A stretch of DNA of 54,916 bases from positions 1 to 54,916 of the forward strand of contig CALRHL010000004.1 in assembly GCA_943359455.1 (NCBI GenBank), given 5' to 3'. The translations under genes and the position numbers were made by a program. Position 1 is the first letter of the stretch, and each line of letters opens with the position of its first letter. Below, piece by piece: positions 12,609-54,916 of this stretch. Origin of the DNA: Candidatus Uhrbacteria bacterium RIFOXYB12_FULL_58_10. GTDB lineage: Bacteria; Patescibacteriota; Patescibacteriia; UBA9934; GWF2-40-263. Under the pieces are notes generated by a model. That model ran no database searches. It was given only the letters and a program-made list of their open reading frames with translations, and was not told the origin of the DNA.

Positions 12609-15143
12609 TCAACCCTTCATCTTTTTCGCCGCACGCCTATCGTGAAACTGATTTCTTAACCGACGAAACTTTGGAGAAGATAATTTTGCCATCAAAACAC
12701 CTGTTAATTTTTCAGGAAGTTCTCCGACACGTGAGGCGTCTACCACGGCGACATTATTTTCGGAATACACATCCGGCTGGGTTTCATCTGGGTACACTCC
12801 TTCATTATAGATATTTATAAATTCTCGTTCTCCTCCACGATTCGCAATCCCAATTCCGACAAAAAATATCTGATCACGAAATCGAGAAATTGACTGAAGG
12901 GTTCGTTCCGAACTACCAGGTTCGATAGATTCCATAATATTTGCCAGCATCTGTGGAGGCGCATCCTGATTTCCATGCAAATAGGATACCAACTTAGTCA
13001 TGCTTTCTGGATCATCAGCGCCTCCGTCTGTAATAAACAAAATAATTTTCACTCGTTCTTCTGATTTGTTAATAAGCCGCTGATCTTGGTAGGCGGCATG
13101 CAGGGCGGAAACTGCCGCAAGGGGATCATTATTATCACCCATTCTCATTTTTCGATACGCAGGAAACATTTCTACTGCAAAGCGCTCTTCTTCTTGTGTT
13201 CGATCAGTTTCTTCTCCGCTTGTATGTATCAACCCTTTTTCCCACCCATCATGATTCATTCTCGCAACATCATTGGAATATAAAATTCCAAGATATCGCA
13301 ATGGTGGACTTGCTTCAATTTCTGGTTCTCGAAAACCAAAACGACGCATACGTCGTGCAATTTCTGAATTAACACGAAGCGCAACACGAGCAAGCATAAC
13401 GTTTGCCGCTTTCGCCGCATTCTCACGATGACCACGCATTGAACCAGAATGGTCATTGACAACGATAATATCGACCCCCATGAAACGTTCGATTGTTTTT
13501 CGGGTCTCTCTTACTTCCGGAAATTTCTTTCCTTCTAACACCATTTGCCGGTACGCCTCCGCCTTTCGTGTTGTTGGAAGCCGACCCATTGGTTGGTCCC
13601 CAATAATGATACGTAATCGATCTTCCAAAAAACTATCAATCAGTTTATTTGTCATCTCATTCAGCGATTCCTCGTCAATCAACCTGATGGCATCAACATA
13701 TTCTTGATGATCCTCCCGCGAAATCGATGCTGGTCGTGGAATTTCTAGAGAGTTTACCCCGCGACTTCCGCTTCGACCGGGTCTACCTTCCGGACTATTT
13801 TCCTTATTATCTCCACCACCTTTACCTTCCCCTTCTCCCTTCCCCTTCCCCTCGCCCTTTCCTTCTCCCTTACCTTCCCCTTCTCCCTTCCCCTCGCCCT
13901 CCCCTTCTCCCTCCCCCTCTCCTTCCCCATCCTTATCCTCACCCGCATTATCCGGATGCCTCTCATCACTTCTATCAATCTCAATATCCTCATGCGTGGC
14001 ATGTCCTCCTTCACCCTTTCCAGAACCGGGATCACCTGCCTTGCCTTCCTCAATCAATCGTCGCAAAAGTTCTAACAATTTTTTTGCAATCTGTTGTATC
14101 GTTTCATCATCCCCAATCTTTTCCTCAGATCCATCCTCTGGACCAAGCTTCTTTTGCATCGCTTCACGAACTTGTTCCGCAACTTCTTTTGCAGAACCAC
14201 CTTCCGCCTCCAATTTATTCAATGTGTCTTCCAAATCTTGTTGTTGTGCGTCAACGAGTTGAAAAAAAACAGGAGCAACCACTTTGTTAAACTCGCGATG
14301 ACGAGAGATCGTCGACTTGCTTCCATTTCCACAAAAACGAGCTGTTTGAATCACGCGAATAAACTCCGCTTCTAAAACAGAATCTCCTAACATGTAAGGA
14401 TTCGGAACACGCTCTTCTTCCGGAATCTTCTCACGCTCATCACTTCCAAAATGGAACGCTTCATGTTTCAGCGCTGACATAAAATAATGAGGACGACGAA
14501 GCACCGCCAACACCTCACGCGCGGCGCGACGTTTATCTGCATCCGCATCTGGTCCAACAACTTGCGTCACACTTGCTTCATACGGATCTTCCAAAATAAC
14601 ACGAGGAAAATAATGATTGTATGCGGCAAAATATGCACCGACCGTTCCTGGGCGCTTTTCGAGATTATTTGCATCAAGCAACATGTCGAGTTTTGTATTC
14701 AAAAACTGCCCGACCACCCCTGCGTATTTCCGTTGACGATCCTCGTACACCTTTTCATCTTGAATTTCGACCGTACGCATCACCTCTTCTCCATGCCCAA
14801 ACTCATGCCAAAATAAAGCAAACATGGAAGCAGGAGGACCTTCCCAATACAGCGCGGGATCATACTCAATTTCTTCTTTGATGACTCGTTTCGTGTCTCT
14901 ATCAAAATACCGTTTATTACAAAATCGATTGCTTCCAAGCGGAGCCTCAGCAAACGAAATACGTCGAGGTGGATCACTGTGAGCCGCTTCTCTTTTAAAA
15001 AACCGTTCAAAATCTTTCAGTTGAACACGAAACGCTTCGTGTTGTTTGACACGTGTCTGTTCTTTTGCCAACCGCTCTTGTTCCTTTGCTAAGCGCTCTT
15101 TCTCCTCAGGTGGCAAATTTGATGATTGTGTCGGATCTGACAT
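12609..15143 (-). CDS. vWA-domain protein with N-terminal HExxH motifs and Gly/Glu/Lys low-complexity linker (CobT/MoxR-partner-like)
   Basis: WHEFGH and KHEAFH; (GE/GK)n linker; MIDAS DHSGSM and FITDG; 2 nt downstream of the AAA gene. Confidence 0.8.
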   Translation of the reverse strand: MSDPTQSSNLPPEEKERLAKEQERLAKEQTRVKQHEAFRVQLKDFERFFKREAAHSDPPRRISFAEAPLGSNRFCNKRYFDRDTKRVIKEEIEYDPALYWEGPPASMFALFWHEFGHGEEVMRTVEIQDEKVYEDRQRKYAGVVGQFLNTKLDMLLDANNLEKRPGTVGAYFAAYNHYFPRVILEDPYEASVTQVVGPDADADKRRAAREVLAVLRRPHYFMSALKHEAFHFGSDEREKIPEEERVPNPYMLGDSVLEAEFIRVIQTARFCGNGSKSTISRHREFNKVVAPVFFQLVDAQQQDLEDTLNKLEAEGGSAKEVAEQVREAMQKKLGPEDGSEEKIGDDETIQQIAKKLLELLRRLIEEGKAGDPGSGKGEGGHATHEDIEIDRSDERHPDNAGEDKDGEGEGEGEGEGEGKGEGEGKGEGKGEGKGKGEGEGKGGGDNKENSPEGRPGRSGSRGVNSLEIPRPASISREDHQEYVDAIRLIDEESLNEMTNKLIDSFLEDRLRIIIGDQPMGRLPTTRKAEAYRQMVLEGKKFPEVRETRKTIERFMGVDIIVVNDHSGSMRGHRENAAKAANVMLARVALRVNSEIARRMRRFGFREPEIEASPPLRYLGILYSNDVARMNHDGWEKGLIHTSGEETDRTQEEERFAVEMFPAYRKMRMGDNNDPLAAVSALHAAYQDQRLINKSEERVKIILFITDGGADDPESMTKLVSYLHGNQDAPPQMLANIMESIEPGSSERTLQSISRFRDQIFFVGIGIANRGGEREFINIYNEGVYPDETQPDVYSENNVAVVDASRVGELPEKLTGVLMAKLSSPKFRRLRNQFHDRRAAKKMKG
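13812..13935 (-). repeat. 6-nt period low-complexity repeat encoding GEGEGKGEG linker
   Basis: cccttc/ccctcg/tccttc units on + strand. Confidence 0.85.
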
Positions 15144-15145
15144 AT

Positions 15146-18100
15146 CTACGGTTTAACCTCCTTCTCAGGCAGCGGACCAACAACAATTTTTGCTTTACAC
15201 TGACTTCCTTTATTTTCCATTTCTTCCACAAAAATTGTAAGATCTTTCTCTGAATTCTCACCAAGTCGATTTCCTGCTTTTCGAATATACACCGTCCCAC
15301 CAACCGCGCGATTGCACGCACGTTGCCCTGTTTTGTTCAAATGTAACGTTCCACCTTTCATGCCAAACCCAGCGCGATCCTCTGCCGTTTGTAAGACATA
15401 ACCTTCGCCACCTTCCATATTTTGAAAGGCTCTCGCTCCAACCCTATACGCAGTAAGCTCCCCACCATTCATCCGATTCCCAAAATGATTCCCGACTGAA
15501 TCCACCTGTAACTTTCCTCCGGACATTTCTCGCCCAACATAATTTCCAGCAATGCCGATAATTTTTACAAAACCTTTCTGCAAACGATACCCGAGAAGGT
15601 CCAACGATGGACTCGCGCTCAGATTAATCACGATTTCTTGTTTCATTGCATCTTCGTCTGACATATTTTCAAAATGAAGATACAGTAACCTTGAAATAAA
15701 CAACCCAACCATCTTTTGGTCTTCCCATGATCGAGACGGTAAAATCTCCGTTCTGATTCTATTTACATACACCTGCATATCTTCCGGCTCAACGATTCCT
15801 CCTGTCACAATACTTCGAAGAATCTGGGTGTCTGCTATAAGTAATTCTTCAGGGTCTGCTTTCACCTCTGCAGACTCCGCATCGCGCAAGGAAAACCATG
15901 TCTGTGTCAGCTCTCCCAACTGTTTCTGTACGTCCGGATCCCCTCCTTCTTCCTCGATGCGTTTTCTCCACGCTTTATCTTCTTCTGCAAGTATCATTCT
16001 ACTCGACTCAAATCGCAATTCTGAAAACAACGCTTTATTCCTGGCGCGTGGTTTCTCAGAAAGTTTTTTCCCAAAACGAAATGATGCTGGAAGTTCTGTT
16101 TGAGTGGAGCGTCCCACGCTTAAAATTTGTGCGGCATCTTGCACAGACACTCCCGTCAAACGACTCGCAATAAGATGTATGGGATATTCTTGTGTATCCA
16201 AGTCACCGAAAATACCAGATGTTGCAAACTGTTTAAAAATTTCCAAGCGTGCTTTTTTCATGTCATCTTGACGCCACGGACCAGCCATAACAACCTTCCA
16301 TGCTGCCTCAAGAAAATGTGTTGGAATTCCATTGCGATCAACAGAACGTGATTTTGTCGCTGAATTGACAACAAGCGCAATTATATTTTCAAGAGTCCGA
16401 ACGGAAATAGGAGAAACCATGTTTAAATCTCCCGGAGACAGATACATTTTTCGCAATTTTGGAAAAACATCCGAAAGCAACTTTTTCGCCATTTCATACT
16501 CCTCTTCTTTCAACAAGGATTGATGAGGGTCGTCAGGCATTGTACTCATGATTTCAAGCAATTTCATTTCGGTGTCGTACGACAAATAATCCACTTTTCG
16601 TTTTTCTGGAAAACGACTGATCACCGCCGGAGGAATATCCCCTCCACCCGCACGTTCGCTTTGAATATCTCCCCAGTTACTTGTCGCAACCACGCGTGCG
16701 TTTGGATGGATACGAAACTCCTCCGATCGTCCAGCCGGCCGAAATCCCTTTCCCGGACGACGCGTCAACAAATCGTACACTCCTTCCAAACCTTTTCCTG
16801 CCTTATCAACTTCATCAAGCACAATGATGGCACCTTCTTGCAACGCAAGTGATAATGGCTGATCCACCCATGCCGCAAGCGCTTCCTGTCGCGCTTTCAA
16901 AATACGCTTGTCGTCAGGTGCAACCGCACCGATTGCCGCAATACTACGAGCGAGATCAAACTTATACTTGTACCAACGGCGAAAATCTTCCGCTTTCTCC
17001 GCTGGTGTATCTCCAGAAAATTCCTCTAATATTCCTTCAGGAATATGAGCAAGCAGTTCGTCTCCTTTTTTATTTTCAATAGATCGCCAAAATACTTCCG
17101 CGTCCTTAAGTGTTTCTGCTCTCGGAAGTGGCAACTGGTGCATCCCAACAAGTGTTTCAAATGAAGATCCTTCATGAATAGAAATCACGCGACATGGTTG
17201 ATGATTTTCTCGTGCAATTTCACGTAACGATTCGGTTTTTCCCGTCCCTGGTGGTCCATACAAAAGAACGCGCGCCACTTTTCCTCCTGGTGCTAAAACG
17301 AGTTCCCGCAACGTATCCATGTCTGCTTTAATCTCCCCAACAGGAATAAACGTTTTTCCATGCACATGATAATCCTCCAAAAGACTCCCAACTTCTCGTT
17401 CTTGAATATATTCCGCGAGCTCACTATTGCGCGGATCACGAAGTTTTGTTTCGATATCAGATTGCATGTCTCGCTGGCGTTGCTGAAGAACGATTCGTTC
17501 TTGAGACAACGAATCTCCTGATCGTGTTGAACAAACTTCCAACAAAAACGACGAAATTTTTTCTGTTGCATTTTGACTATTTTCTTTATCAAATTCCAAA
17601 ATGTTAGATTCGAGGTACCGATCAACTAAACCATCGAAGTCTTCCTGAAGATGCGTACGCAGAAGTTGATCAATAGACTCTGGTGGACGTTTTGGATCTG
17701 TCGTAAACTGCATGTTCTCTGCGCGTATGACGAGCGCCGTCAATTCATTCAACAGCAATTCTTTTTTGTGCAATTGACTGATTTCAAACAGTTGTTGTTC
17801 ATACACGACAAATTTTCTTCTGGCATCTGCTCGGCGCATCAAAGAAAACAACGTCTCTGATGCAACTTGTTGTTCAGGGGTCGGTTTCTCTGTTTGAAAA
17901 GCAAGTCGTTTACGAACTTCAAAACTTACCCGATCACGCATTTCAAAAAAAGTTTTTGTGAGCTCTGCATGTTCGCGTCGAAGCGCTTCAAGCTGATTTG
18001 TTTTACCTCCTCCAAAAAGATCAGTGAGACCACGAACAGGACTGTTGGGCGCAGACTGAATCTGAACCGCACGTTCGATTGTTTTGATACGCTCAGAAAG

Positions 18101-51689: not shown

Positions 51690-52343
51690 ATGATTTTATC
51701 TCGCCAAGACATCGTCTCACAGATCAAGTCTGGAGGAATTCGACTCACCCCAGAGCTCGATCAGTTTCAGATGCAGCCGCACGCCATTGATCTGCGTCTT
51801 GGTTATAAGTTTTTGATCCCGCGTAATTGGACGATCGATGAAAAAGGTCGTCGTGCCATTAAAGTTTCGATCGACAATGTCACCGCGCATCCAGAACAGT
51901 TTGATGAGGTCATCCTCCAGCCAGGACAATATTTTGAACTGCTCCCAAATGAATTTGTGATCGGAACATCTCTCGAACGCATAGAAATGAATGCACCAAA
52001 CCTGATGGCGATCCTCTTCCCTCGTACATCCACGAATCGTCGAGGAATCGATCTGTCACTTTCTGGAATCATTGATGTTGGATACAAAGGCCATCTCATC
52101 TTTCCAATGAAAAACGAAGCAGGTGATCAGGTCATCCGGATCTATCCTGGCGAACGTGTTTGCCAAGTTATTTTTGAAGAGTTGAAATCCCCACTAACTC
52201 CAGAGGAGGCAAATCAACACGGACTGTCCGGAGCAAAATACAGCGAGACGACGGATCAGACGTTCAAACTGGACAAAGATGAGGAACGTCGTGCTCTCGT
52301 AGAAGGAAAGCTTGATGAGATGAAAAAACGATTCGGAGTCTAA
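51690..52343 (+). CDS. dcd: dCTP deaminase-family (trimeric dUTPase fold) protein lacking the catalytic Glu
   Basis: MILS, QPHAIDLRLG, L.PNEF, RTSTNR, IDVGYKG, PGERVCQ; FPMKN where Dcd has LE(F/L)xN. Confidence 0.8.
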   Translation: MILSRQDIVSQIKSGGIRLTPELDQFQMQPHAIDLRLGYKFLIPRNWTIDEKGRRAIKVSIDNVTAHPEQFDEVILQPGQYFELLPNEFVIGTSLERIEMNAPNLMAILFPRTSTNRRGIDLSLSGIIDVGYKGHLIFPMKNEAGDQVIRIYPGERVCQVIFEELKSPLTPEEANQHGLSGAKYSETTDQTFKLDKDEERRALVEGKLDEMKKRFGV

Positions 52344-52351
52344 AGAAACCT

Positions 52352-53260
52352 CTAAAGTTGTCTCAAAACATTTTTCATCATCCAACAGGCATCTTCGGGA
52401 GTTTGGTATTCGATATGGTAAACAATCGCGGGATTGCCGCGGGCGAAGCGGGAAACCGATGCGCCTTTTTTTGATAAAAGAACGATTGGTTTGCCGGCCA
52501 TCTGTGCATAGGCGAGTTCTCCTCCAACTCCGAGGGATGTATACGTAACATCGGCCACAATCACGTCTGAGGCACGCACCTGATCGACATCGATCTGCCA
52601 GACTTCTTGTGAGGTACGGCAGTCGTTGGAGCGTGGATCACAATGCATGTGTGGAACATACGGCTTGATGCCGATTTCAAGACAAGCGTCTGCGAGTGAT
52701 TCGTACAGTTTCCGCATCGGTCCATACTCCTCTTCTGGCATGTTTGTCATCGGTCCAGAAATGTAGGAAGACTGAACGGATGGTTTCAATGTCTGTGCAA
52801 ACACATTGTCACGACTAAACCTATCGTGCGCGTCGTCTGTCACGTACAAATCACGAATCCCTGCGTTAATGAGTGTTGTCCAGCACGATTCACAAGCCCA
52901 CCAGTGACCATACATGTACGCATCGGCTCCTATGAGGTCGATTCCACGCTCAGTCGCCATTTTGACCGCCATCTGCTCTGCGTGTCCCGGAGCATCATGA
53001 AGGGTGCACAGATCATATCCTGTCCCAGACGGACAATCTAAAACAACGCGTGGGCAAATATGTACAGTTCCTGCCCCCCGACTAAACCCGTTCCCCGCTG
53101 TCACGAGTACTTCCCCATCCCGCACCATAGCGATTCCGACAGGATAAAGTGTATCTCCTGACTGCTCTGCACGAGCTTTTGCTGCAGAAAGCATAAAACG
53201 GTCGTCGTGAGGAACATACTTGAGCTGACGATCAGATGGCATGTAGGGATAGTCTGGCAT
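52352..53260 (-). CDS. dCMP-deaminase-like domain fused to nucleoside 2-deoxyribosyltransferase/Rcl(DNPH1)-like N-glycosidase domain
   Basis: N-terminal CPR..C.SG.GY.LC, HAE, WACESC, LINAGI; C-terminal YISGPM, PYVPH, D.DQV.ASDVIVAD, SLGVGGELAYA, KPIVLL. Confidence 0.85.
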   Translation of the reverse strand: MPDYPYMPSDRQLKYVPHDDRFMLSAAKARAEQSGDTLYPVGIAMVRDGEVLVTAGNGFSRGAGTVHICPRVVLDCPSGTGYDLCTLHDAPGHAEQMAVKMATERGIDLIGADAYMYGHWWACESCWTTLINAGIRDLYVTDDAHDRFSRDNVFAQTLKPSVQSSYISGPMTNMPEEEYGPMRKLYESLADACLEIGIKPYVPHMHCDPRSNDCRTSQEVWQIDVDQVRASDVIVADVTYTSLGVGGELAYAQMAGKPIVLLSKKGASVSRFARGNPAIVYHIEYQTPEDACWMMKNVLRQL

Positions 53261-53289: not shown

Positions 53290-53796
53290 TTATGAAATGG
53301 TAAAATGCATTAAAATTCCTTGCCCAAGCGGTCGTGATTCGATCAACTTCAAATCGATTCGTCCGATCCCAGATACAAGTGGGATCCCTTCACCAAATAG
53401 AACGGGTTCGACGGTTAGGAACAGTTCGTTGACGAGACCTGACTGTAGGAACTGCGAATATACAGATGCACCACCGCAGACAGCGAGATGGGTGACGCCT
53501 TCGTTCTCGAGACGGGCGACGAGAGCAAGGACAGATTCAGAAGTGAACTCGATTCCTTCGACTCGCTCCGCTCGCTCAGGAGATATGGTATGAGTCATAA
53601 CAATCAGCCGTCTTCCCTTCAATGGCTTCCCGAAGGTCTTAAACGTTGTATTCCCCATCACCACCGTCCCAATCTCTTTTGTTTTTTCAACAAAAAAACG
53701 TGTGTCTTCTTTGCTCGTCCATTCAAGCGAAGATTGTCCTGGAGCCTGCCCAATTTTTCCATCCGCACTGATGGCGGCGATAAGGGTGATGATCAT
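53290..53796 (-). CDS. folA: dihydrofolate reductase family protein
   Basis: LIAAISADGKIG, W..KED..FF, VVMGNTTF, KPLKGR, GGASVY; ATGA-coupled to the thyA-like gene. Confidence 0.85.
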   Translation of the reverse strand: MIITLIAAISADGKIGQAPGQSSLEWTSKEDTRFFVEKTKEIGTVVMGNTTFKTFGKPLKGRRLIVMTHTISPERAERVEGIEFTSESVLALVARLENEGVTHLAVCGGASVYSQFLQSGLVNELFLTVEPVLFGEGIPLVSGIGRIDLKLIESRPLGQGILMHFTIS

Positions 53797-54626
53797 AATG
53801 CAATTTGTACTTTTTTCATGGCAGCGCCTGGATTGTACTGACATTGAAACATTTCGATCAGTTCTGTGACGAGTGTAGCATCTGCTTCTAATGCTCGTTG
53901 GAAGGAGTGTTGAGGAAGCTGGCAGATAATTTCTGGATGGACTACGACTTCCCGACCAAGAATATCCTCGACGGCTTCGAACTGATTTTCGTAAATGTGT
54001 GCGTGTGAAATGGAAACCGTGAGTTTACCGACGGCAACAGCGAGCTCTTGCGCAAGCATGGCTTGCAAGAGAGCGAAGTCAGCGGTGTCGTTTGGGTTTC
54101 CAAGTACCATGTCGTTTGATCGGATAACGACGTGAAGATTCAATTTTCCGCCGATGATATTTACCGTCCAGGTGAATGGACACGGAACATTTTTCTTTTT
54201 AGGTGCACGCAATCCATCATCGCTTGGATCCCACATGATGACAACTCCCTGTCGGGATGTCGGTTCCTCACGCAGATGCTCAACCAACTCAATCAACTGG
54301 TCACGACCAAAATGATGACGCCAACGATATCCATACGCGGTCTCAACCGTTCCATCTGCTTCCAAAAAACTATCCCAACCTTTTGTAAACTGTTGCAAAA
54401 AACCAGCGTGCTTATGGCCCGCAATAAACCAGACTGTTTCTGCACAAAAAAACTTTGGAAACATTTTGCGCACGGTCAAGAGAGGAAAACCACTCGCAGG
54501 TTGAAGCTCATACGTCACTCCCGGGATCGCACGCGTCGAAAAACCCGTCCGTTCATTTTGAACAGTCTCCCCTTCGTGGTAAATGCGTCCAAGAGCGTCG
54601 AGATAGACTCGATCAAATGTCGTCAT
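53793..54626 (-). CDS. thyA: thymidylate synthase-fold enzyme with cytosine-nucleotide specificity signature (Asn177->Asp)
   Basis: ERTG, FPLLT.RK, E..WF, YGYRWR, DQL, PC (C149), RSND..LG.PND (D180), HIYENQ. Confidence 0.85.
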   Translation of the reverse strand: MTTFDRVYLDALGRIYHEGETVQNERTGFSTRAIPGVTYELQPASGFPLLTVRKMFPKFFCAETVWFIAGHKHAGFLQQFTKGWDSFLEADGTVETAYGYRWRHHFGRDQLIELVEHLREEPTSRQGVVIMWDPSDDGLRAPKKKNVPCPFTWTVNIIGGKLNLHVVIRSNDMVLGNPNDTADFALLQAMLAQELAVAVGKLTVSISHAHIYENQFEAVEDILGREVVVHPEIICQLPQHSFQRALEADATLVTELIEMFQCQYNPGAAMKKVQIAL

Positions 54627-54695: not shown

Positions 54696-54916
54696 ATGCA
54701 ACTGCCTGTGGATATAAAAAGGATTCGTCCAGACGTTCCGTTTCCGGAGTACAAAACTGCTGGGGCGATTGCGTTTGATATCGCCGTTTCAGAAGGCAAA
54801 ACGATGCAACCGGGCGAAACGGTCTTTTTTTCAACAGGATTAGTAGTCTGCACGCCTCCTGGCTATGGCCTCATTATTGCCGGACGATCATCAAACGCAA
54901 AAAAACAGATTACCCT
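54696..54916 (+). CDS. dut: trimeric dUTPase-like protein, 5' part (runs off window; absent from ORF track)
   Basis: my translation MQLPVDIKRIRPDVPFPEYKTAGAIAFDI...PGE....TGL....PPGY...IAGRSS. Confidence 0.8.
   Translation, partial: MQLPVDIKRIRPDVPFPEYKTAGAIAFDIAVSEGKTMQPGETVFFSTGLVVCTPPGYGLIIAGRSSNAKKQIT

Follow-up and report, generated by a model that had tools for sequence, protein, structure and literature searches.

A chromosomal ThyA homologue of Candidatus Uhrbacteria predicted to methylate deoxycytidylate, and a candidate cytosine-first route to thymidylate in Patescibacteria

To our knowledge, synthesis of thymidylate (deoxythymidine monophosphate, dTMP) from deoxyuridine monophosphate (dUMP) is the textbook route for all cells. 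The gene considered here encodes a ThyA homologue that resembles phage enzymes acting on deoxycytidine monophosphate (dCMP). It lies on a stretch of 54,916 nucleotides, hereafter the window, which is the whole contig CALRHL010000004.1 (assembly GCA_943359455.1) of Candidatus Uhrbacteria bacterium RIFOXYB12_FULL_58_10. Several studies have established how such enzymes can be recognized. In thymidylate synthase (TS), the N177D substitution makes dCMP the substrate in place of dUMP, and phage contigs with modified cytosine are best told apart from unmodified ones by positions 177 and 147 (Yang et al. 2021, PMC8670742). Laboratory mutants of canonical ThyA (N177D, N229D) are described as dCMP methylases (PMC8670742, PMC13326640), and PDB entry 1njc contains L. 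casei TS N229D with dCMP bound. Hydroxymethylases are recognized by an acidic residue (Asp or Glu) at the third position ahead of the catalytic Cys and by the absence of the C-terminal tail (Park et al. 2019, PMC6400193). Their reaction regenerates tetrahydrofolate, and D145N abolishes the activity of the T4 enzyme (PMC6400193). A 2026 Nucleic Acids Research paper (PMC13326640) gives the same rules for positions 177 and 143 and uses Asp169Asn as the mark of 5-hydroxy-dCMP synthases. Furthermore, a preprint (10.1101/2024.12.05.627091) reports that the homologue of phage Xp12 and five of seven metavirome homologues with Asp at position 177 (hereafter Asp-type) gave 5-methyldeoxycytidine (5mdC) in vivo. 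It also describes a deaminase, mSCD-B5, that is encoded beside an Asp-type homologue, prefers 5-methyl-dCTP and yields dTTP. The enzyme class is therefore one already known from phages.

We propose that the ThyA homologue of the window is a folate-dependent dCMP C5-methyltransferase that replaces ordinary TS in a cytosine-first route to dTMP, a reading that we regard as fairly probable. In the host, an ultra-small bacterium, methylation of a cytosine nucleotide would probably come first and its deamination to a thymidine nucleotide second. Our full-text literature searches found no cellular version of such a pathway. The gene and its diagnostic codons are the following, all located by alignment (position numbers are those of E. 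coli ThyA unless a residue of the window protein is named):

53793..54626, minus strand: ThyA-family gene, Asp-type, 277 amino acids, a predicted dCMP C5-methyltransferase (5-methyl-dCMP synthase), based on PF00303, alignment, tree and AlphaFold2 model
54087..54089, minus strand: codon GAC for Asp180, at E. coli Asn177, the pyrimidine-specificity residue
54123..54125, minus strand: codon for Ile168, at E. coli Gln165
54177..54191, minus strand: codons for Asn146-Val-Pro-Cys149-Pro150, with the catalytic Cys, Asn at E. coli Leu143 and Pro at His147

The protein matches PF00303 (Thymidylat_synt) with an E-value of 4.3e-52 and 177.3 bits over profile positions 2-242 of 266, and shares 29% identity with E. 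coli ThyA in a MAFFT alignment. From the RS motif to ...ALL, it aligns without gaps both with E. coli ThyA (MAFFT) and with solved thymidylate synthases (HMMER). An earlier note, made from the sequence alone, had aligned a segment of the protein with E. coli ThyA without gaps, placed Asp180 at Asn177 and pointed to Pro in place of the His following the catalytic Cys and to Ile in place of the Gln preceding RS. Both alignment programs agree with this placement of Asp180, and the two other replacements (Pro150 at His147, Ile168 at Gln165) are also found. E. coli Glu58, Trp80, Tyr94, Cys146, Arg166, Ser167, Asp169, His207 and Tyr209 are retained in this alignment and in that used for the tree, Asp169 corresponding to Asp172 of the RSND motif. 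In addition, Trp83 is replaced by Phe and the loop at residues 100-107 is shortened. At the C-terminal end, ...YNPGAAMKKVQIAL is aligned with ...YDPHPGIKAPVAI of E. coli, and the tail ...KKVQIAL is kept in homologues. Hence, the window protein shares the fold, the catalytic core and the C-terminal tail of canonical ThyA (E. coli, L. casei) but differs from it by Asn177Asp, His147Pro, Gln165Ile, Trp83Phe and Leu143Asn. At four of these positions (177, 147, 165 and 143), residues of the canonical dUMP-dependent enzyme (EC 2.1.1.45) have thus given way to Asp, Pro, Ile and Asn.

These replacements are widely conserved. All 120 near homologues among the matches listed (60-100% identity) carry Asp at position 177. 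They are publicly named 'thymidylate synthase' (Candidatus Uhrbacteria / Patescibacteria group), the ordinary thyA label that the earlier note expected from automatic annotation. A scan of species-representative genomes with a 10-row query alignment returned 258 related stretches, and the Asn143/Asp169/Asp177 pattern was found at 80 of 80 loci in the best 80 of these 258. Since Asp180 is kept in 120/120 homologues and at 80/80 genome loci, it is neither a chance replacement nor a sequencing error. The titles of these best 80 stretches name many candidate phyla of the Candidate Phyla Radiation (CPR). Eighteen of the 80 records are titled 'uncultured Gammaproteobacteria bacterium'; several of the proteins that they encode are 77-87% identical to the Uhrbacteria ThyA homologue, and we therefore consider these labels doubtful and placeholder-like. 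Moreover, a search of 1.84 billion representatives provided the 150 best proteins for a motif scan, which read Asp at position 177 in 124, Asn in 13 and no scorable residue in 13. Position 143 was Asn in 108 of 123 Asp-type rows and Leu in all 14 Asn-type rows; the latter kept His147 in 12 cases and Gln165 in 10. A scan of IMG/VR with the window protein alone gave a best match of 32% identity, so that no close viral relative was found in this way.

Phylogeny, suggested as a check in the earlier note, places the window protein in a single Asp-type clade together with the homologues of phages Xp12 and PaMx74. Two trees were built, a quick one of 137 rows and a careful one of 81 rows, from which T4 gp42 was omitted because of its very long branch; they agree with each other. 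In the careful tree, the Asp-type rows form one clade of 50 rows (ultrafast bootstrap 100 / SH-aLRT 100) with two halves. One half, of 15 rows, includes Xp12 and PaMx74 (support 99/94); the other, of 35 rows, includes all 20 Patescibacteria rows and the window protein (support 95/98). A constraint joining the CPR Asp-type with the CPR Asn-type proteins, a group named after the tree had been obtained, was rejected (delta log-likelihood 417.5, approximately unbiased test p 7e-49). One representative, P0251, has Asp177 although the rest of its pattern is canonical (His147, Trp83); it groups with the Asn-type rows, suggesting that Asn changed to Asp a second time, independently.

The AlphaFold2 model of the window protein, which is ligand-free, has a pLDDT of 96 and a pTM of 0.94. 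Its structural matches are given below with their root-mean-square deviations (rmsd):

Canonical TS, four representatives: Z 28.6-30.1, rmsd 1.8-1.9 Å
MilA: Z 26.2, rmsd 2.8 Å
9iqc, 'monooxygenase dependent on riboflavin with dCMP and FAD': Z 21.7, rmsd 2.6 Å
T4 deoxycytidylate hydroxymethylase (dCH): Z 18.8, rmsd 3.0 Å, the most distant family member

Z is highest against canonical TS and lowest against T4 dCH; the scaffold is therefore that of methyl-transferring enzymes. The full TS scaffold and TS-like tail described in the earlier note are thus found again in the catalytic residues, the tail and the structural matches.

Among described systems, those of Xp12 and PaMx74 are the closest. 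The window protein has the same combination of Asp177, Asn143, Asp169, Pro147 and a C-terminal tail as both phage proteins, as well as a hydrophobic residue at 165, and the phages and the window have in common a neighborhood of TS, deaminase and dihydrofolate reductase (DHFR) genes. In Xp12 and PaMx74, a hydrolase or pyrophosphohydrolase gene is followed by the TS, deaminase and DHFR genes. Deamination of 5-methyl-dC to thymidine, which we propose for the window, is described in Xp12-type phages (10.1101/2024.12.05.627091). There are also clear differences. The window gene is chromosomal, belongs to a module found beside NusG-L11-L1 and is the only ThyA homologue of its cell. As for the partner that may cleave dCTP, the window has a member of the dUTPase/Dcd superfamily and Xp12/PaMx74 have an enzyme of MazG or HAD type. 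The window deaminase is of another subfamily than that of Xp12 and forms one polypeptide with a DNPH1-like domain. Finally, 5-methylcytosine (5mC) replaces C in the phage DNA, whereas we have no indication of such a replacement in the window genome. With Asp177, a non-acidic residue at 143, Asp169, its place in the clade and its link to DHFR and deaminase genes, the protein has the features of the Xp12-type deoxycytidylate C5-methyltransferases (EC 2.1.1.54). This supports its assignment to this already described class, the corresponding activity being predicted.

The gene is a cellular one. The host genome (1.07 Mb, 97.7% completeness) contains a single PF00303 match, the ThyA homologue of the window, and our search of this genome found neither ThyX nor thymidine kinase. 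Ribonucleotide reductase and serine hydroxymethyltransferase (SHMT) genes are present. A Pfam scan of the window identified genes for ribosomal proteins, tRNA synthetases, IF-2, GyrB, RodA/FtsW and ComEC. A prophage origin of the cluster was considered and ruled out, since the window carries ribosomal, tRNA-synthetase and gyrase genes and since the module lies beside NusG-L11-L1 in four genomes. The ThyA homologue is therefore a chromosomal gene and the sole ThyA-family member of the genome.

The genes around it are the following:

53290..53796, minus strand: dihydrofolate reductase, 168 amino acids from the ATG at 53796 (RibD_C 1e-20, DHFR_1 2.7e-17, phrog_316 5.5e-22)
52352..53260, minus strand: fusion protein of 302 amino acids, a divergent dCMP-deaminase-family domain (about residues 1-160; PF00383 1.1e-09) followed by a DNPH1/Rcl-like domain of the nucleoside 2-deoxyribosyltransferase family (PF05014 4.1e-08)
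51690..52343, plus strand: dCTP-deaminase-like (Dcd-like) protein, 217 amino acids, with Pro139 at E. coli Dcd Glu138 (PF22769 DCD 2.8e-26)
54696..54916, plus strand: 5' part of a canonical dUTPase gene, truncated by the contig end (PF00692 6.2e-07, TIGR00576 6e-09)

The start codon of the DHFR gene overlaps the TGA stop of the ThyA homologue (ATGA), a coupling that fits a reaction releasing dihydrofolate. The gene of the deaminase fusion begins 29 bases past the DHFR gene. The Dcd-like gene is convergent with this operon, and the dUTPase gene is divergent from the ThyA homologue. A promoter and terminator scan gave a signal no higher than that of shuffled sequences.

The fusion carries the only dCMP-type deaminase domain of the host genome, the other PF00383 match being TadA-like. 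It scores 20.8 bits with the model of ComEB-type dCMP deaminases (cut-off 219), and the deaminase domain alone gave weak matches only in the PDB, with human DCTD at E 0.13. Its DNPH1/Rcl-like domain (52352-52774, minus strand) matches Rcl/DNPH1 chains at 2.3e-05 and retains the SLGVG.EL motif. The same fusion is found in another genome (G242), and free DNPH1-like homologues lie near the ThyA gene in two others (G084 and G184). The pairing resembles the human DCTD-DNPH1 clean-up of 5-hydroxymethyl-dC nucleotides. The DNPH1-like domain was also considered as a marker of the Asp-type module and was rejected, as it occurs in 30 of 301 Patescibacteria genomes and in several of them adjoins canonical TS genes.

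The Dcd-like protein falls just below the cut-off of TIGR02274 (92.1 vs 92.8) and lacks Glu138, which we take to be the catalytic residue of E. coli Dcd. It is predicted from its sequence to be either a pyrophosphatase (dCTP to dCMP) or a dUTPase. In the phage collection, its only matches were Dcd genes of archaeal viruses, with 26-33% identity.

From these data we infer what the ThyA homologue acts on and produces, in which order the steps occur and what the Dcd-like protein does, as follows. First, dCTP would be cleaved to dCMP, possibly by the Dcd-like protein, which lacks the deaminase Glu and may stand in for the phage pyrophosphohydrolase. The ThyA homologue would then methylate dCMP with methylene-tetrahydrofolate, giving 5-methyl-dCMP and dihydrofolate; this step is suggested by the active site of the protein, its clade and its coupling to DHFR. 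The translationally coupled DHFR would recycle dihydrofolate, SHMT and DHFR completing the folate cycle. Lastly, the divergent deaminase would turn a 5-methyl-dC nucleotide (mono- or triphosphate) into a thymidine nucleotide, a role suggested by its co-occurrence with the ThyA homologue and by the fact that no other source of dTMP is recognized. The net chemistry would be that of the classical dCMP-deaminase route, with two steps swapped in order.

The same genes recur in other CPR genomes. We sampled 301 Patescibacteria genomes; a ThyA-family match is present in 136 of them and is strong in 14, including the window genome. The other 13 strong-match genomes all read Asp177/Asn143, whereas the next 16 loci all have the canonical Leu143/His147/Gln165/Asn177. 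None of these 13 Asp-type genomes encodes ThyX. Within the stretch around their Asp-type ThyA gene, DHFR and Dcd-like genes are each found in nine of the 13, a deaminase gene in eight and a thymidylate kinase gene in six. For instance, the gene order in G026 is TS-DHFR-Dcd-like-deaminase-Tmk. Glu138 is replaced in the 12 strongest Dcd-like matches of the sample (by Pro in 11 and by Ser in one) and present in each of the 18 that follow, one of these 18 rows coming from the unpublished genome G154. The Glu-less form is encoded by 10 of the 13 other Asp-type genomes, and the 10 strongest matches to the deaminase domain all belong to Asp-type genomes. Furthermore, in the best 80 of the 258 species-representative stretches, DHFR, deaminase and Dcd-like genes lie within 3 kb of the Asp-type ThyA gene in 58, 52 and 35 cases, respectively (for the Dcd-like proteins, 34 Pro and one unresolved residue). 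Asp-type representatives include a deaminase-TS fusion (P0146) and a fusion of a MazG-like PRA-PH domain with TS (P0177). The Asp-type ThyA is hence part of a conserved four- to five-gene module that recurs in CPR lineages.

Other genes were noticed at these loci. P-loop kinase-like domains are tied to the module: G223 encodes a deaminase-kinase fusion (L049:3742-4758, minus strand), and G242 (L040:5360-5947, plus strand) and G084 (L044:5060-5611, plus strand) have stand-alone AAA_17/18/28-type genes immediately upstream of their ThyA homologues. These P-loop kinase-like proteins may be deoxynucleoside monophosphate kinases. In G274, the usual place of the deaminase is occupied by an open reading frame (ORF) of 351 amino acids (L050:7995-9050, plus strand) with a weak match to the TS fold (PF00303 1.1e-4; TIGR03283 3.8e-5); judging from these matches, the module would contain two ThyA-like proteins there, this one being very divergent. 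Elsewhere in the window, a gene at 15146-18382 (minus strand) encodes a 1078-amino-acid protein with AAA_5/AAA_16 and GXGXG domains; it is followed by an 844-amino-acid ORF (12609-15143, minus strand) for which the Pfam scan gave no match.

The first alternative to be weighed is that the protein is an ordinary TS that converts dUMP to dTMP despite its Asp. The neighboring genes would then serve the classical dCMP-deaminase route, which is that of Gram-positive bacteria and eukaryotes: the deaminase would convert dCMP to dUMP, the Dcd-like protein and Dut would act as dUTPases and DHFR would recycle folate. We consider this alternative possible but rather unlikely. The points that follow weigh against the cytosine-first route, and several of them favor an ordinary TS. 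The same gene set can be read as the classical one, and a canonical dUTPase gene adjoins the ThyA homologue. The YPRSS and IDxxYxG motifs of the Dcd-like protein look like those of dUTPases. The window protein passes one of eight NCBIfam thymidylate-synthase models (TIGR03284, 117.2 vs a cut-off of 108.35); the other seven give scores far under their cut-offs (for instance NF002497, 141.6 vs 327). The linked deaminase subfamily is absent from three of the 13 other Asp-type genomes, including G274, which is 99% complete; an ordinary TS would better tolerate this absence. In G164 (97% complete; L059 / L083), a Glu-less Dcd-like gene adjoins a ComEB-type deaminase gene, and the genome has no ThyA or ThyX match. 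The window deaminase has no close kinship with that of Xp12 (BLASTP E 0.039). The tested phage enzymes belong to the sister half of the clade and share only 33-40% identity with the window protein; the assayed members all lie outside the CPR half. In addition, two of the seven Asp-type homologues assayed gave no 5mdC, according to the preprint (10.1101/2024.12.05.627091). The need of the cell for dTMP, for which it has a single ThyA-family gene, and the canonical TS enzymes being the closest structures also favor an ordinary TS.

Several observations speak against this alternative. Asp177, Pro147 and a hydrophobic residue at 165 constitute the published dCMP pattern (PMC8670742, PMC13326640), which is invariant across the clade, and the window protein groups with phage enzymes reported as 5mdC makers (10.1101/2024.12.05.627091). 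The linked deaminase belongs to a divergent subfamily that is not of ComEB type and that, in the sample, is found only with Asp-type ThyA. Moreover, since canonical enzymes with Asn, His and Gln exist in other CPR genomes (16/16), the Asp-type is a separate, maintained state. The cytosine-first route and an ordinary TS are separated only by the active site of the ThyA homologue and by the subfamily identity of its partners.

A dual-specific or drifted enzyme, using both dUMP and dCMP with neither route exclusive, would account for the deaminase missing from some Asp-type genomes, and the dUTPase and a possible second dUTPase would supply its dUMP. We find this improbable, as the whole cytosine-type residue set is strictly conserved over a deep clade, which suggests selection for one specificity.

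The last alternative is a dCMP-modifying enzyme with another product, either a hydroxymethylase like T4 gp42 and MilA or a 5-hydroxy-dCMP synthase like RB69 gp48. The T4 gp42 segment RSNDVVFGFRNDYA, in the same alignment as the window protein, confirms the RSND..G..ND likeness that the earlier note had pointed out: both proteins contain RSND...G..ND and carry the specificity-determining Asp. The window protein also has Thr two residues before Tyr98, where hydroxymethylases carry Ser or Thr; this residue is not discriminating, because Xp12 also has Ser there. Relatives of the DNPH1-like domain fused to the neighboring deaminase hydrolyse hydroxymethyl nucleotides, but DNPH1-like genes also adjoin canonical TS genes in CPR genomes. 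T4 gp42 shares only 25% identity with the window protein over 152 residues, has Asp before the Cys, lacks the tail and regenerates tetrahydrofolate. MilA, a CMP hydroxymethylase, and the RB69 gp48-type enzymes have the ThyA fold with the cytosine-type Asp, but MilA carries Asp where E. coli ThyA has Leu143, and Asn is found at 169 in the RB69 gp48-type (PMC13326640), in contrast to Asn143 and Asp169 in the window protein. The window protein lacks the marks of a gp42-type hydroxymethylase, since Asn146 takes the place of the Asp or Glu before the Cys and a TS-type tail is present; retention of Asp169 likewise indicates that it is not a 5-hydroxy-dCMP synthase. With an Asn at the site where D145N kills the T4 activity, a coupled DHFR for which a tetrahydrofolate-regenerating reaction has no need (PMC6400193) and T4 dCH as the most distant structure, we give very little credence to another product. 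The preference of the earlier note for methylation over hydroxymethylation is supported, the sequence and context tests that were run all agreeing with it; what that note overlooked is the Xp12-type class, the position of the gene as sole ThyA of a cell and the conserved module.

A more far-reaching form of the cytosine-first route can also be envisaged. The CPR lineages with this module would have no dUMP-dependent thymidylate synthesis, 5-methyl-dC nucleotides would be obligatory intermediates of dTTP and would be partly polymerized, and the chromosome would contain sequence-independent 5mC as in Xp12. The extra P-loop kinases in some clusters are consistent with this, as is the possibility that the deaminase acts on the triphosphate like mSCD-B5 of phages (10.1101/2024.12.05.627091). 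The host genome search found neither a C5 DNA methylase nor Vsr, and the absence of Vsr argues weakly against 5mC in the DNA. In G147, a gene for a Dcm-type C5 cytosine DNA methylase with an EcoRII-C nuclease lies directly downstream of the Asp-type ThyA gene (L043:7122-9470, plus strand). Such a methylase/EcoRII-like system would serve no purpose if the DNA were fully methylated and therefore also argues weakly against this form, which we consider very unlikely.

If the cytosine-first route is correct, a wide range of CPR/Patescibacteria lineages forms dTMP by methylation of dCMP followed by deamination, an order so far described only for phages with 5-methylcytosine DNA. Hundreds of genomes would then carry misleading labels ('thymidylate synthase', 'dCTP deaminase', 'dCMP deaminase') for the genes of this module, and the metabolic models of reduced CPR symbionts would change. 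Moreover, methylation sequencing, for which 5mC-selective deaminases are of interest, would gain cellular sources of such enzymes. Finally, this would raise the question of a common origin of the phage 5mC system and the cellular pathway.

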